Shown here: one piece after another, positions 47,908 through 57,615 of the stretch
How positions within the stretch are numbered: position 1 is the stretch's first letter
Layout: every line of letters begins with the position of its first letter
DNA from: Waddliaceae bacterium
GTDB taxonomy: Bacteria > Chlamydiota > Chlamydiia > Chlamydiales > Waddliaceae
NCBI GenBank assembly: GCA_963724325.1
Contig: CAVRUH010000001.1
Coordinates: forward strand, 288,001 to 352,000
Direction: 5' to 3'
Length of the DNA: 64,000 bases
The notes under the pieces: model-generated
What the model was told of the DNA's origin: nothing
The model's input: the letters and a program-made list of their open reading frames with translations, nothing else
Database searches by the model: none
Made by a program: the position numbers and the translations under genes

Positions 47908-48894
47908 CTAACGATTCTCAAATGAGAATGATGTGATAAGCTCTTTGACCTCTTCTATACACGAGGCTTTGCTTATAGAACCTCGAAATTCCCGCGCGTT
48001 GCGCGACTTAGTGAAATACCAACACCCTACCCTGCGCATGTCGATTAATGCCCCAAGTTCAGACTTATAGGCAATAGAATGATTAAAATGCTCCAAAAGA
48101 CTGCTTCTGCGCTCTTCAACGCTCCGTTCTATGCCCTCAAGGCCATCAAAATAACGGATAATATCCTCAACAATCCAAGGATGCCCCATAGTCCCTCTAG
48201 ACACCAGCACCGCATCACAACCCGTATATTCAAAAATTCGCTTAGCGGCATCAGGATCAAATACATCGCCATTTCCAATAACCTTGATATCTTTGGCAAC
48301 ATCTTTGCAACTTTTAATATGATCCCAATTCGCTGGCCCGGTATATCCCTGTTGGCGCGTCCTGCCATGAATTGTAATTGCCTTTGCACCAGCCTTTTCT
48401 GCAATCTTAGTGACCTCAGGCGCCACTATCGAATTCTCATCCCACCCCGTCCTAATCTTCACCGTCACAGGAATCTTCACAGCAGCAATCATATTAACCA
48501 ATATTTCACCAATCATCTCAGGATTTTTCAATAATCCCGAACCACTTCCATCTTTCGTCACCTTGTCTACAGGACAGCCGCAATTCAAATCAAGAACATC
48601 AAACCCTTTTTCTTCAATCATTCTAGCTGCTTGAGCCGCAATTTTGGGATTGCTGCCGACAAGCTGACCACCAATAGGCCGCATAGACTCATCATAATCA
48701 AGCATGGACAACGATCTCTCATTACTCCTTATGATTGCGTCCATTTTCACCATCTCACAATACATCAAGCCCGGATTAAATTTAGCCGACATCATCCGGA
48801 ACGGATAATCGGAACATCCAGCAAGCGGAGCATAAAAAATGTTATTCGGCAGGACAGTGTCCCCTAAAGCAAATGGTCTTTTCAGGTATTTCAT
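47908..48894 (-). CDS. dusB: tRNA-dihydrouridine synthase
   Basis: APLAG, DLNCGCP, PVTVKIRTGW, IHGRTR and GNGDV motifs. Confidence 0.93.
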   Translation of the reverse strand: MKYLKRPFALGDTVLPNNIFYAPLAGCSDYPFRMMSAKFNPGLMYCEMVKMDAIIRSNERSLSMLDYDESMRPIGGQLVGSNPKIAAQAARMIEEKGFDVLDLNCGCPVDKVTKDGSGSGLLKNPEMIGEILVNMIAAVKIPVTVKIRTGWDENSIVAPEVTKIAEKAGAKAITIHGRTRQQGYTGPANWDHIKSCKDVAKDIKVIGNGDVFDPDAAKRIFEYTGCDAVLVSRGTMGHPWIVEDIIRYFDGLEGIERSVEERRSSLLEHFNHSIAYKSELGALIDMRRVGCWYFTKSRNAREFRGSISKASCIEEVKELITSFSFENR

Positions 48895-48895
48895 A

Positions 48896-49156
48896 TTAAT
48901 AAAACAGTTTGATTATAAGTTGGTTAACAAATGAATTTATGACTCCAAGACTCAAGAATGCGAAAACAGGACTAAAATCCATCATTCCCAATGGGGGTAT
49001 AAATCTTCTAAAAAAATTTAGATAAGGATCCGTGTAATAATTGATAAATTGCATGACCCTATACTGTTGAAATTCAGGAACCCACGAACCCAACACTCTG
49101 ATGAACAACATCATCGTGTACACAAAAAACAACCTGTCAATAATAATGATTAGCAT
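48896..49156 (-). CDS. yggT: YggT family membrane protein
   Basis: RVLGSW and TDPYLNFFRRFIPPLGMMDFSP motifs. Confidence 0.9.
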   Translation of the reverse strand: MLIIIIDRLFFVYTMMLFIRVLGSWVPEFQQYRVMQFINYYTDPYLNFFRRFIPPLGMMDFSPVFAFLSLGVINSFVNQLIIKLFY

Positions 49157-49267
49157 ATTTATCTATAATTTTATATAACTAGTGTCAGATATTTGACAGT
49201 ATTTGTCAATGATTAATTACTGAGAATTGCATGCCGTGGGACTCGGCATGCCGCAAAAACGGACATC

Positions 49268-50053
49268 ATGTTAGAAATTTATACAACCAACATCCTCTGG
49301 GTATTCGTACTCATGACCTACTTTTGGATCCTCGGAACCCGAATTAAAAATATAAGTGTAGTCGACATTGGATGGGCCTTCGGATTCGTCGTCTGCGGCG
49401 TTAGCGCTGTTGTTTTTGGACAAGGCGATCCATTAAAGAAAGGAATTCTCCTTCTCATGGTCCTCATTTGGAGCCTTCGTTTGGGATTCTATCTTATAAA
49501 AAGATTCCGTCTCAATTACGAAGACCCCCGCTATACTCAAATAAAAAAGAACATGGGAAGCAAATGGATAAATTCAAAAATATTACTTATGTTCTTATTT
49601 CAAGGGTTTTTGGTCGTCGTTTTATCCACTCCATTTGTCATTGTTTCTACAAATTCAATCTCCAATTGGAGCATTTTCGAATTTGCAGGTATTCTGATTT
49701 GGACTATCGGTCTAATTGGAGAAACCATTGCCGACCAGCAAATGTCAAAATTTAAAACCATCCATAAGGGTTCGAAAAAAGTCTGTGATATAGGCCTGTG
49801 GAGATACTCAAGGCATCCCAATTATTTCTTTGAATGGGTGATTTGGATCGGATTCTCCCTATTTGCTCTGCCTGCATCATATGGATGGACATCTATCATT
49901 TCAGTCGCCATCATGTATTACTTGCTCAGATACCTCTCTGGAGTCCCCCCATCCGAGGCCCAGGCCCTAAAAACCAGGGGGCGTGCCTACAAAGAATATC
50001 AATCAAAAACTAGCATTTTCTTCCCCCGCATGCCTAACGGGCGTCAACAATAA
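49268..50053 (+). CDS. DUF1295 / steroid 5-alpha-reductase-like membrane protein
   Basis: VDIGW, WSLRLG, EDPRY, ETIADQQ and GLWRYSRHPNYFFEW motifs. Confidence 0.88.
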   Translation: MLEIYTTNILWVFVLMTYFWILGTRIKNISVVDIGWAFGFVVCGVSAVVFGQGDPLKKGILLLMVLIWSLRLGFYLIKRFRLNYEDPRYTQIKKNMGSKWINSKILLMFLFQGFLVVVLSTPFVIVSTNSISNWSIFEFAGILIWTIGLIGETIADQQMSKFKTIHKGSKKVCDIGLWRYSRHPNYFFEWVIWIGFSLFALPASYGWTSIISVAIMYYLLRYLSGVPPSEAQALKTRGRAYKEYQSKTSIFFPRMPNGRQQ

Positions 50054-50073
50054 CCGTCCCTACCCAGCAGCAG

Positions 50074-50148
50074 CATCCTTCATATCCTGCCGCTTTGCGA
50101 TCATGCATATCTTGTTATTCCTAGGGATAACAGGATATGCATGATCGC
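50074..50148. repeat. Palindromic repeat copy A (right arm truncated)
   Basis: CATCCTTCATATCCTGCCGCTTTGCGATCATGCATATCTTGTTATTCCTAGGGATAACAGGATATGCATGATCGC. Confidence 0.9.
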
Positions 50149-50162
50149 TCTACCCCCAACCC

Positions 50163-50297
50163 CTCTTTTGACAAGTCAAATATTACATCTTCCCATCCTT
50201 CATATCCTGCCGCTTTGCGATCATGCATATCCTGTTATCCCTAGGAATAACAAGATATGCATGATCGCAAAGCGGCAGGATATGAAGGATGGGAGGA
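50163..50297. repeat. Palindromic repeat copy B with 27-bp leader
   Basis: Leader CTCTTTTGACAAGTCAAATATTACATC followed by a ~105-bp near-perfect hairpin centred on CCTAGG. Confidence 0.92.
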
Positions 50298-50309
50298 AAT
50301 GATGGTTAT

Positions 50310-50717
50310 CTATATGCTGTGGGTGGCATAATGGTCAGGATGATAAAGCCTCCTGTATTCCACTTTTCGTTTTCCAAAATTAACCAGCAGCCCTATATAT
50401 GTATCGGAAACTTTCAGATAGTTGATTAATTGTGCTTGGTGTTCGCCAAGTAACGATTCACAGCATTTCAATTCAACAATTACAACACCATTAACAACAA
50501 TATCTGCAATATACAAACCTATTTTCCTTCCCCTGAATAACACTTCAAACCTTTTTTCTACTTCTACCTCAAATCCCTTCTCTTTTAAAGCAATGAAAAG
50601 AGCATTTTTATAAACCGATTCTAAAAAGCCAGAACCAAGCTCATTCATCACATCAAAACAGCATCCCAAAATTACTTCAGTTTCATTCGACAACAGCGAC
50701 TGACCATTTTGCATCAT
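50310..50717 (-). CDS. GxxExxY protein (PD-(D/E)XK nuclease superfamily)
   Basis: LGSGFLESVYKNAL, ADIVV..VIVELK, HQAQLINYLK and GLLVNFG motifs. Confidence 0.93.
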   Translation of the reverse strand: MMQNGQSLLSNETEVILGCCFDVMNELGSGFLESVYKNALFIALKEKGFEVEVEKRFEVLFRGRKIGLYIADIVVNGVVIVELKCCESLLGEHQAQLINYLKVSDTYIGLLVNFGKRKVEYRRLYHPDHYATHSI

Positions 50718-50762
50718 TTTCTATTTCCCACATTTATCGATGATACATTTTACACAAAACCG

Positions 50763-50905
50763 CTCTTTTGACAAGTCAAATATTACATCCTCCTATCCTC
50801 CTATCCTTCATATCCTGCCGCTTTGCGATCATGCATATCTTGTTATTCCTAGGGATAACAGGATACGCATGATCGCAAAGCGGCAGGATATGAAGGATGG
50901 GAGGA
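50763..50905. repeat. Palindromic repeat copy C with the same 27-bp leader
   Basis: Direct repeat of copy B, starting 600 bp downstream. Confidence 0.92.
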
Positions 50906-51029
50906 TAAGATGAAATAATGATCGCTTAATTGCCGTGAGCTACCTCGAACCTGTACCCCTCTTTTATCTTGTAATAACTATCACTGATGGGATATGATGT
51001 TAATTTAATATGAGGACGTAAGAACATAG

Positions 51030-52733
51030 ATGCGAGAAATACCAACGGCATACCACACATTAGGGCTGCAACTAAGTACATCGTCTATAAAAGGGGCAGA
51101 ATTAATCCTGCGAAAAAATATACCTCAACTCATCGAAACATTCGAAGTCAATGTAAAGCCGCTTTACATTGGAGATGAACAAAATAAATTAAAGACATTG
51201 CTAAGCAAGACACTCACTATAACTTGCCTAGAGACCTCTGAGGTTCTGGCTAGAACGCTTGAGCTAGAACTGACTAAGGAAAATGACATCGACGCTGTGC
51301 TAGAGTTCCAGGCTGAGCCATTGTTACCCTATCCAACAAATGAAGGACTCATCGACCGCATCATTGTTGAGAAAGAAACAGAAGGGACATCCCTAACTGT
51401 TGTGGCTGCAAGAAAGGACTTCGTCGCAAAGCACCTAGAAAGATGGCATGAGTACGGAGTTGAGCCCGAAACTATCAGTTGCATCCCCGCCGCGCTTGCT
51501 GAGTTTTCAAAATATTTTTGTCCCATCGATACCGCGCATCTTGTAGTATATTTTGGAGAAGACTCAACAACATTTGCTTTAGTTAAATCTGGGAAGCTGC
51601 TATCAGCACAGTCACTCAATTTTGGAACTAATGACCTTATGAAGGCATTCTCCGAAAACACACATATTACTCCAAATGCCATTTTGGGAACGTTTTCAAA
51701 ACTTGATTTCGCAGAATTCGACAGGGAGCATTATCCTAAACTCACTGCTGCCATCAATGGATTTACACTGGAAGTTGCTAAGAACTCCATGTCGCTTATC
51801 AAGAAATTTCAAGAATACGAAGTATCTAATGTCTTTGCTACAGGAGAAGGAGCGACACTGCTCAATTTTGTAAAAGTTATTTATCAGAATCAGAAATTAA
51901 CTCCGCTGCAGCCCCTCGTAAAATCAGAATTTCAAACCACTCCAGAAACGCTTCACAAATATGCCATACCTATAGGAGCCGCCCTGTCGGGACTTCATGG
52001 AAATAACAACGGGATAAACTTCCGGCAGAATGAATACAGTTATCCTCACCCCTGGAAAAGACTGCAAAAACCTTTAATCGCCTACTTTTCCCTGTGCATC
52101 GGTGTTGCCCTATCCATTTATCTAGTCGGCAACGCTTATGTTGCAAAGCAAGACGATAATTTACGAACCGAGTATGTCCACCTCTTAGCATCGATGAAAA
52201 AGCCCTATAGTCAATTTGAAACCGAATTTCTTGAAGCAACACAACCCAATAAGAAGCCAGAAACGGCAAAGGTTGATATATTAAGCCTATCACAGAACGA
52301 TATCCTATACCGCCTCGATTTCCTTAAGAAAGAGCTCAATAGCACACCAGACATGTTTCCATTACTCCCAAATATTCCACGGGTCACCGATGTTTTGGCA
52401 TGGTTATCGAATCTCCCTGCGGTGAAAGCAGCATCTGAATCATCGGAAATAGAAGATAGCAAGATACAGCTTACTAGTTTTAGCTATAAGATGATGAAAC
52501 GTCCCGAATTTAATAAGAAAAAGGAACCCTATCAGGCTAAAGTTGAACTAGAATTTACTACAGCCGTTCCGAGAAATGCACGAGAGTTTCATGATGCCCT
52601 GTTGGAGCCCAATAATTTTGTTGACCCCACAGGAGAAGTCAAGTGGAATGCTGAGCGTGGAAAATATCGAGTTTCTTTCTTCCTGAAGGATAAAACGTAT
52701 TATCCTTCAAAGTCCGGGGGTTCCAGTGTTTAG
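51030..52733 (+). CDS. PilM/GspL-like membrane-anchored protein
   Basis: N-terminal LGLQLSTSSIKGAEL (actin-like pattern), FQAEPLLPYP, INFRQ followed by a TM helix. Confidence 0.6.
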   Translation: MREIPTAYHTLGLQLSTSSIKGAELILRKNIPQLIETFEVNVKPLYIGDEQNKLKTLLSKTLTITCLETSEVLARTLELELTKENDIDAVLEFQAEPLLPYPTNEGLIDRIIVEKETEGTSLTVVAARKDFVAKHLERWHEYGVEPETISCIPAALAEFSKYFCPIDTAHLVVYFGEDSTTFALVKSGKLLSAQSLNFGTNDLMKAFSENTHITPNAILGTFSKLDFAEFDREHYPKLTAAINGFTLEVAKNSMSLIKKFQEYEVSNVFATGEGATLLNFVKVIYQNQKLTPLQPLVKSEFQTTPETLHKYAIPIGAALSGLHGNNNGINFRQNEYSYPHPWKRLQKPLIAYFSLCIGVALSIYLVGNAYVAKQDDNLRTEYVHLLASMKKPYSQFETEFLEATQPNKKPETAKVDILSLSQNDILYRLDFLKKELNSTPDMFPLLPNIPRVTDVLAWLSNLPAVKAASESSEIEDSKIQLTSFSYKMMKRPEFNKKKEPYQAKVELEFTTAVPRNAREFHDALLEPNNFVDPTGEVKWNAERGKYRVSFFLKDKTYYPSKSGGSSV

Positions 52734-57481: not shown

Positions 57482-57615
57482 ATCATCTCCCATCTTCTTC
57501 TATCCTGCCCATCATGCCGCTTGCGATCATGCATATCCTGTAAATTCCAAGGAAAACGGGATATGCATGATCGCAAGCGGCATGATAGGCAGGATGGAAG
57601 AAGATGGGAGATGAT
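57482..57615. repeat. Palindromic repeat copy D (~134 bp) between convergent recA and ispA
   Basis: ATCATCTCCCATCTTCTTC...GCCGCTTGCGATCATGCATATCC...GGATATGCATGATCGCAAGCGGC...GAAGAAGATGGGAGATGAT shares its core with copies A-C and the 151-bp array. Confidence 0.92.

Follow-up and report, generated by a model that had tools for sequence, protein, structure and literature searches.

We have analyzed a window of 64 kb (the whole stretch of DNA studied, G000:C1:288001-352000) of a chlamydia-like genome, G000 (2.37 Mb, 11 contigs, 40% G+C), in which a small gene of the GxxExxY family is enclosed by long palindromes. Gene and palindromes together, referred to below as the cassette, lie between a DUF1295 gene (49268-50053) and a PilM-like gene (51030-52733), both on the plus strand. 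The layout is real, and the palindromes and the gene look like one repeat system. The features of the locus, in window coordinates, are the following.

50074-50148: hairpin 1, a right-truncated palindrome; its left arm is complete and its right arm ends after GATCGC of the core
50163-50189: leader copy 1, 27 nucleotides (nt), between hairpins 1 and 2, with no adjoining gene
50187-50297: hairpin 2, a 111-nt palindrome
50310-50717, minus strand: GxxExxY gene, 135 amino acids (aa), the only open reading frame (ORF) in the cassette
50747-50774, minus strand: promoter-like site TTGTCA-16-TAAAAT, located some 30 nt upstream of the GxxExxY start, its -35 hexamer within leader copy 2
50763-50789: leader copy 2, 27 nt, between the 5' end of the GxxExxY gene and hairpin 3
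50796-50906: hairpin 3, also palindromic over 111 nt, inverted with respect to hairpin 2

The flanked gene had been assigned to the GxxExxY family in a first-pass annotation of the window, and profile searches agree, with matches of the ORF to PF13366 (5e-38, 130.4 bits against a Pfam cut-off of 22) and to TIGR04256 (4e-38, above the NCBIfam cut-off of 35). The 27-bp leader at 50163 and 50763 and the truncated third hairpin at 50074 that the same annotation described are also present in the sequence. Its description of the two flanking units as directly repeated holds for the leader and fails for the palindromes. The palindrome has an asymmetric centre, which has one orientation in hairpins 1 and 3 and the other in hairpin 2, and hairpins 2 and 3 agree at 108 of 111 positions when one of them is read as its reverse complement. 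Since the centres are flipped between neighbors, the palindromes across the gene act as inverted arms, the leader being the direct repeat. Hairpin 1 is identical to hairpin 3 at 73 of 75 positions and to hairpin 2 at 71 of 75. Folded as single-stranded DNA, the three reach -21.9 (z -8.2 against shuffles), -58.3 (z -16.2) and -56.0 kcal/mol (z -16.9), respectively. The gene-proximal half of hairpin 2 is a canonical arm, with phased ..GAT 9-mers around a mini-hairpin CGC-AAA-GCG, and the end codons of the ORF (..YHPDH..) look like a degenerate inner arm. The leader exists in two identical copies, both at this locus, and nowhere else in G000 when up to 4 errors are allowed; we read copy 1 as the remnant of a neighboring unit minus its gene.

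The association between this kind of gene and palindromic flanks exceeds chance. We scored the best local inverted repeat between the flanks of a gene, each flank comprising 250 nt outside and 60 nt inside the gene. The controls, 383 ORFs of 110-180 aa from G000, had a median score of 19 and a 99th percentile of 26. Only 4 of the 383 scored 27 or more and 2 scored 45 or more, these two being the GxxExxY gene itself and an ORF in the array beside a gene resembling the REP-associated tyrosine transposases (RAYTs; REP, repetitive extragenic palindromic sequence). Among chlamydial GxxExxY loci (the window plus 19 picked loci, 14 genomes, the arms of two being known beforehand) 17 of 20 scored 27 or more and 14 of 20 scored 45 or more. 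The wider set goes back to a search of the genome collection that gave 80 relatives of the window protein, 74 of them with at least 250 nt on both sides, and shares three loci with the chlamydial set; here the same thresholds were reached at 66/74 and 57/74 loci. In most cases the arms lie right next to the ORF, at distances of -40 to +70 nt, and their outer end is often (T)AACAGG(G)AT. G000 itself holds two full GxxExxY genes and one weak partial match.

The same core sequence is found in the window in two places without the gene.

111-610: gene-less array, period about 151 nt, in which core palindromes alternate with an 80-81-nt spacer (S81)
57482-57615: lone gene-less palindrome, 134 nt, same core, in the gap toward which the 3' ends of recA and a polyprenyl-synthetase gene converge

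Both copies had been reported in the first-pass annotation and are real and intergenic, the array sitting past the 3' end of an RmlD-like gene. As single-stranded DNA, positions 205-306 of the array fold at -40.7 kcal/mol (z -12.1) and the lone palindrome at -69.3 kcal/mol (z -17.6). The 64-kb window has 5 core matches with an extra T and 8 without it, none being expected from 100 shuffles, and the 6 complete and 2 partial hairpins that result agree with the earlier figure of at least 7. In G001, a genome of the same genus, at the site that is syntenic to the lone palindrome, also downstream of recA (G001:C1:955880-956260, L051), there is a different palindrome of about 380 nt together with a short terminator-like hairpin.

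A copy count across the whole genome, one of the checks proposed together with the original observation, gave 262 half-sites at 86 loci of G000 for the 22-nt core with up to 3 errors. Of these half-sites, 140 form 70 close convergent pairs, i.e., hairpins, with a modal loop of 22 nt between the cores; many others are of an outward type (core, spacer of 36-156 nt, core), which is the arrangement that encloses the gene. There are about 130 gene-less palindromes in G000, a ratio of hairpins to gene of about 130 to 1. As many as 235 of the 262 half-sites fall outside crude genes, though coding sequence makes up 87% of the genome, and the core is present in only 86 of about 2010 crude intergenic gaps. 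The repeat stands on both sides of the gene, and this, with the arms at 17/20 and 66/74 loci against 4/383 controls, speaks for the enrichment next to GxxExxY genes that a nuclease and repeat system would imply. The gaps that hold the 86 loci are convergent in 37 cases, tandem in 42 and divergent in 7, the corresponding numbers for the background of 2010 gaps being 344, 1328 and 338, so that core loci are enriched at gene 3' ends and depleted at promoters. Between outward-facing arms the commonest spacer has 80-84 nt, is non-palindromic and is found either way round; G000 contains 50 copies of its middle 46 nt. In the window, spacers of the S81 type are located at 140-219, 292-371 and 442-522, and there are about 47 further places in G000; the middle 46 nt had no match in any locus fetched from other genomes. 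We considered this spacer as a possible relic of cassette ends; only its first 35 nt or so resemble the 3' flank of the gene (by eye), and the middle 46 nt is unmatched. The notion that each unit has matching termini fits the three hairpins of the locus and was dropped, since the array at 111-610 does not follow it.

G000 holds two other enzymes that are relevant to these palindromes. Its only PF01797 match is the RAYT-like gene, a 180-aa Y1 ORF (C5:207304-207846; 29.9 bits, cut-off 23). After it comes a tandem array with a period of about 106 nt (C5:207304-208400, L140), made of a different hairpin, of which G000 has 31 exact copies. This looks like a classical REP/RAYT-type system that coexists with the GxxExxY palindromes. 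A RAYT located elsewhere and carrying the present repeats had been named at the outset as one of the findings that would refute a link with the nuclease; the RAYT-like gene is there and its hairpin differs, so that it is no rival enzyme for them. The second enzyme is a large serine recombinase (Resolvase, Recombinase and Zn_ribbon_recom domains) encoded by a 1.9-kb element, the only recurrent neighbor of the 86 loci. All six copies of the element are inserted at one arm position, after ..GATCGCAAGCGGCA and before CAGGATA...

C1:24003-26015 (L139), near C1:440969-443011, C7:230190-232137, C7:256987-259204 and C7:114273, all in G000: copies of the serine-recombinase element

As the insertion point is the same in every copy, the palindrome is a target of this element and not its cargo. 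It could still be argued that a REP-like repeat, spread by the RAYT-like gene or by the serine recombinase, came to flank an unrelated nuclease gene by coincidence, given that G000 has both a RAYT-like gene and a palindrome-associated recombinase and that one of its two GxxExxY genes is flanked by the repeat. We find such a coincidence hardly credible. The RAYT-like gene has a different hairpin, the recombinase element interrupts the arms and does not carry them, arms are found at 66 of 74 related genes in the wider set and at 17 of 20 chlamydial ones but at only 4 of 383 controls, and the same core arms stand on a relative of the gene in G001 and on gene fragments in G018, a genome of another family.

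Comparison of the arms shows a common architecture, in which successive phased 9-mers, each with a final ..GAT (consensus NNNCAGGAT), surround a mini-hairpin of 3 bp, CGC-AA(A)-GCG. In the chlamydial subclade of the window the arm reads CAGGAT-NNN-CAGGAT, mini-hairpin and then G-CAGGAT, and the core is, as judged from its sequence, the local form of this GAT-type arm. In this genus the arms are doubled into full palindromes, and the gene-less palindromes of G000, about 130, consist of these arms alone. Of the 33 arms found, 20 have CGC-AA-GCG, which is thus the commonest mini-hairpin, with the variants CAC-AC-GTG (6), CAC-AA-GTG and CGC-TTC-GCG, and other cassettes have longer stems of 4-7 bp (CGCC-TTC-GGCG, CGCT-TC-AGCG, CGCCATG-AAA-CATGGCG). 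When 25 distinct arms of equal length were aligned, pairing was complete (75 of 75 cells) and better than in any slid control. In 5 rows both bases of the middle pair differ, A:T standing in place of G:C, and G041 has many copies of CGT-TT-ACG, in which both sides of the inner pair are changed. This pattern suggests that the small local stem in each arm matters, the independent events being few.

We have also compared the arm types with the phylogeny of the protein, using 46 sequences, namely that of the window, 35 selected from the 80 loci so as to be well spread, and 10 from relatives, after removal of four rows that contain stop codons. The tree splits into two deep clades with 100% SH-aLRT. 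In the clade of the window (36 rows) 29 have GAT-type arms, 4 have other arms, 3 have none and 0 have arms of the AGAG type. This clade spans Chlamydiota, Thermodesulfobacteriota, Chloroflexota, Acidobacteriota, Armatimonadota, Verrucomicrobiota and Pseudomonadota (at least seven phyla, as taken from record titles), and the nearest relatives of the window protein are Chlamydiota, again by record title. In the other clade (10 rows) 7 have CACAGAG/CGCAGAG-type (AGAG-type) arms, 3 have other arms and 0 have GAT-type ones. GAT-type and AGAG-type labels require one change on the protein tree, so that the anticipated co-variation between repeat and protein was recovered, as a single contrast. Both kinds of arm are found side by side in G001, and G018 has AGAG-type arms on full genes and core arms on fragments that resemble the subfamily of the window. 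These mixed genomes indicate that the arm goes with the gene and not with the host.

The core itself has a narrow distribution. Among 41 genomes of the order, its half-sites numbered 193 in G000, 230 in G001, 8 in G006, 8 in G018 and 1 in G031, with none in 36, and 4 of the 8 in G018 lie beside GxxExxY fragments. A shorter pattern, searched in five further genomes that have a core-armed gene, was found 54 times in G041, 81 in G042, 106 in G043, 3 in G044 and 5 in G045 (reversed control, 0). In these counts, which are uncorrected for relatedness among the genomes, expansion of the core is thus found only where a matching gene exists, and not everywhere one exists. A generic pattern of three CAGGAT had matches in 9 of the 41 relatives, with 22, 19 and 23 in G005, G013 and G037.

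Stem-loops of this kind might also act in RNA. The intervening sequences of 23S ribosomal RNA (rRNA) carry an S23p (four-helix-bundle) ORF within a long inverted repeat, and the cassette resembles them in having a small ORF in the loop of a long inverted repeat and dispersed copies. It differs from them in that the unit lies between protein genes (DUF1295 and PilM-like) and the ORF belongs to PF13366. By analogy, the arms would pair in the transcript and control or insulate the enclosed gene, the stem being processed (e.g., by RNase III) or terminating transcription, and the gene-less copies would be terminators or processing sites. The very stable stem around the ORF, the location of copies at gene 3' ends, the compensatory changes of the mini-hairpin and the promoter-like site inside the arms would all fit. 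This last one, with 10 of 12 consensus matches, is a weak hint only, because such sites are not above chance in shuffles (2 found, 3.6 expected). We regard an RNA-level element as distinctly improbable, however. The palindromes are near-perfect up to the centre and no T run follows them, the count of terminator-like sites at the locus was 0, and an Rfam search of the locus gave no family at threshold, with only sub-threshold matches to generic microRNA-precursor hairpins. Neither the co-variation of the arms with the nuclease clade nor the multiplication of copies would be explained.

The boundaries of the unit can be seen by comparing related cassettes. Cassettes that are 82-88% identical and come from different assemblies have no common flanks, and their homology stops at the outer ends of the arms. 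Thus, L069 and L071 match over 682-1121, with the arms at 680-712 and 1086-1118. One assembly has a unit of 544 bp twice, with 99.4% identity. In G001 the site syntenic to the window locus is without the DUF1295 gene and without the cassette, and gain and loss are indistinguishable there because the two genomes are only about 70% identical in DNA and the DUF1295 gene is missing from the gap too. The nearest DNA relative of the window gene in G001 is on another contig, 69% identical including an arm, and has the same core arms. Three DNA metagenome runs (shares 0.07-0.13) gave over positions 48800-52200 of the window contigs of 151-283 nt with a depth of 2-3 only, and no joints, which is uninformative on excision and on expression.

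These boundaries bear on the main rival account, in which the hairpins came first, as an independent repeat family (terminator-like or self-propagating) at whose tips small mobile genes, GxxExxY genes included, would insert by preference or be tolerated exclusively. The arms would then be a target and not part of the unit, and the nuclease might be a homing-type enzyme for the hairpin or have an unrelated job. Several facts are in line with this, namely that the palindrome is already the target of another element (the six same-position insertions of the serine recombinase), that G000 has about 130 hairpins for one copy of the gene, that core loci favor convergent 3' ends, and that the syntenic site downstream of recA in G001 has a different palindrome. 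All the same we think it unlikely, since cassettes from unrelated contexts are homologous up to the outer ends of the arms and no further, and since arm type tracks the protein clade, both in a comparison of at least seven phyla and inside single genomes, which passive landing does not predict. If each nuclease picks its own hairpin type, the hairpins-first account merges with that of a nuclease matched to its arms.

The protein has the features of a nuclease. The residues G28, G30, E33, Y36, D72, E82, K84, Y100, G109, L110 and R123 are invariant in 46/46 sequences, with H93 and Q96 nearly so, and in the window protein they form the motifs G30-x-x-E33-x-x-Y36, D72, E82-x-K84 and Q96-x-x-x-Y100 of a PD-(D/E)XK core. 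The QxxxY motif marks the Cas4/lambda-exonuclease/RecB family of nucleases. An AlphaFold model (pLDDT 90.5, pTM 0.83) had as its best Foldseek match Cas4 SSO0001 (4ic1; E-value 7e-5, template-modeling score, TM, 0.50), and further matches were LHK-Exo (3syy), lambda exonuclease (3sm4), Cas4 4r5q, MGME1 and AdnAB, Hjc-type resolvases being weaker. On the basis of motifs and model, the GxxExxY protein is a predicted PD-(D/E)XK nuclease with a Cas4/lambda-exonuclease-like fold and an intact active site. It shares with Cas4, lambda exonuclease and RecB the D..ExK and QxxxY motifs as well as the best structural matches of the model; it differs in being a minimal domain of 135 aa, without CRISPR or recombination-gene context, at a TM of about 0.5 and 11-25% identity. 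The predicted likeness to Cas4/RecB is one of fold and not of orthology. No relative was found in a sequence search of the PDB (E-value up to 1), and the PADLOC defence-system models gave 0 families at E-values up to 0.01. The homodimer prediction scored 0.00 against a mark of 0.42, which is no evidence either way. Two conserved Cys-Cys pairs (C19, C20 and C85, C86) are present in the subfamily of the window and missing from the CACAGAG-armed subfamily, and the C85-C86 pair directly follows the catalytic E82-x-K84.

We propose that nuclease and arms would be a matched pair, as in the RAYT systems but with another enzyme fold. The nuclease would recognize either the repeat units and mini-hairpin of the arm, with the DNA single-stranded or extruded, or the outer AACAGGAT end of the arm, and would cut there. 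The break would be repaired by copying from another arm-bearing copy, spreading or maintaining arms, with or without the gene and with no target duplication, and selection would leave the copies mostly at gene 3' ends. For the central part of this proposal, that the nuclease recognizes and cuts the arms and that repair guided by arm homology copies them with or without the gene, we consider the chances evenly balanced, on the strength of sequence comparisons. Break-and-copy would explain the absent target duplication, the gene-less majority and the flipped centres. A precedent of a kind are the PD-(D/E)XK homing endonuclease genes, in which a nuclease gene lies within its own target and homes by break and repair. 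The cassette is similar in that the nuclease gene is within a possible target of its own, and copying without duplication would fit; the differences are that the gene is not in an intron or intein and that the presumed target is a multi-copy palindrome, mostly empty. A wider claim, which is possible but which we hold to be doubtful, is that GxxExxY nucleases drive undescribed mobile hairpin cassettes, without DDE, HUH, serine or tyrosine recombinase, and that these seed intergenic palindrome families in many phyla. The nuclease would then cut its own arms or empty palindromes of the same type, and repair would copy the arms into the break.

A number of observations weigh against a nuclease that spreads its own arms. 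The second GxxExxY gene of G000 (C5:248284-248640) is without core flanks and its arm score of 21 is like that of the controls, and 3/20 and 8/74 of the other GxxExxY loci score no better than controls. The co-variation of arm and protein amounts to one deep contrast, with the AGAG-type clade sampled only from chlamydial relatives, and because the contrast is single it is not a statistic. G044 and G045 hold a core-armed gene, yet they have only the 3 and 5 half-sites mentioned above. The excess of core loci at convergent gene ends would also fit terminator-like hairpins kept for the host. The duplicated 544-bp unit (L069 against L072, in another genome than G000), the single case inspected, extends about 85 nt beyond one arm, and a target duplication is not visible at it. 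Comparing G000 with G001 we found no empty site or insertion footprint, in genomes that are too distant for this comparison because their DNA is only about 70% identical.

To these has to be added that the truly multi-copy GxxExxY genes, in G007 and G018, are moved by something else. In G007, with about 35 GxxExxY matches of equal score, the gene is a passenger in a 1760-bp IS630-like element with a DDE_3 transposase of 345 aa (L004:1915-3674). At six fetched loci the element is 99.9-100% identical, and the GxxExxY gene keeps its own 32-nt arms inside it. Three copies of this element interrupt Y1_Tnp (IS200-like) genes (C10:138181-140304, C21:41149-43272 and C15:40101-42224). In G018 a unit of 376 bp (L013:542-917), with CACAGAG-type arms around the last 50 codons or so of a GxxExxY gene, was present at 11 of 11 sampled loci (L013-L023) with 97-100% identity, in L020 over 251 nt only. 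We had considered these fragment copies as proof of spread driven by the arms and rejected them, since the sequences on either side of them are repeated too, in two or three kinds, and form larger mosaics.

By its layout, and as an analogy, the closest described system is REPIN/RAYT, in which REP doublets are associated with RAYTs (PMC3116915, PMC3337134). The likeness had been drawn when the locus was first described (an enzyme gene in inverted palindromes, plus gene-less copies), and it was supported in all the tests that we have run. In both cases an enzyme gene, which is single-copy here for the subfamily and arm type of the window, lies in inverted palindromic repeats, there are many gene-less intergenic doublets, each arm has a small stem-loop, and the repeat is matched to the enzyme. 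Unlike REPIN/RAYT, the enzyme here is a PF13366 PD-(D/E)XK protein, RecB/Cas4-like, and not an HUH Y1 transposase (PF01797), and the arms are arrays of phased 9-mers. REPIN-RAYT systems are described in an abstract as mostly vertically inherited, whereas related GxxExxY cassettes are found at different loci in several phyla.

The cassette can also be compared with pairs formed by an insertion sequence (IS) and its miniature inverted-repeat transposable elements (MITEs), e.g., in the IS630 family, in which a unit with terminal inverted repeats is accompanied by more numerous gene-less miniature derivatives. The GxxExxY unit is likewise bounded by inverted repeats and its gene-less copies are more numerous. 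Unlike IS/MITE pairs, it has no DDE, HUH, serine or tyrosine recombinase, and the one pair inspected gave no sign of a target duplication; moreover, the entire GxxExxY cassette is a passenger of a genuine IS630-like element in G007.

In the one survey found to name it, the PF13366/GxxExxY family is listed with function unknown (PMC3424549). Literature searches on GxxExxY, PDDEXK_3, PF13366 and TIGR04256, which did not cover supplements, gave no link of the family to repeats, and a REPIN/RAYT-like layout with a different enzyme is apparently unpublished. The matched hairpin built of repeats is a concrete candidate substrate for this orphan family. If the link is functional, bacterial populations of palindromic repeats would have, beside RAYTs, a second and mechanistically different partner, many unannotated intergenic hairpins would be explained, and nucleases with an arm specificity readable from the genome could be obtained. 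What this window adds is the genus-specific core with its mini-hairpin, a controlled genome-wide census, a separate RAYT-like system in the same genome and a recombinase element that targets the palindrome. As for the weak partial match in G000, it is located at C1:510825-511013 (PF13366, 22.6 bits, profile positions 54-113) inside an open frame of 542 aa, which may encode a larger protein with a related nuclease domain.

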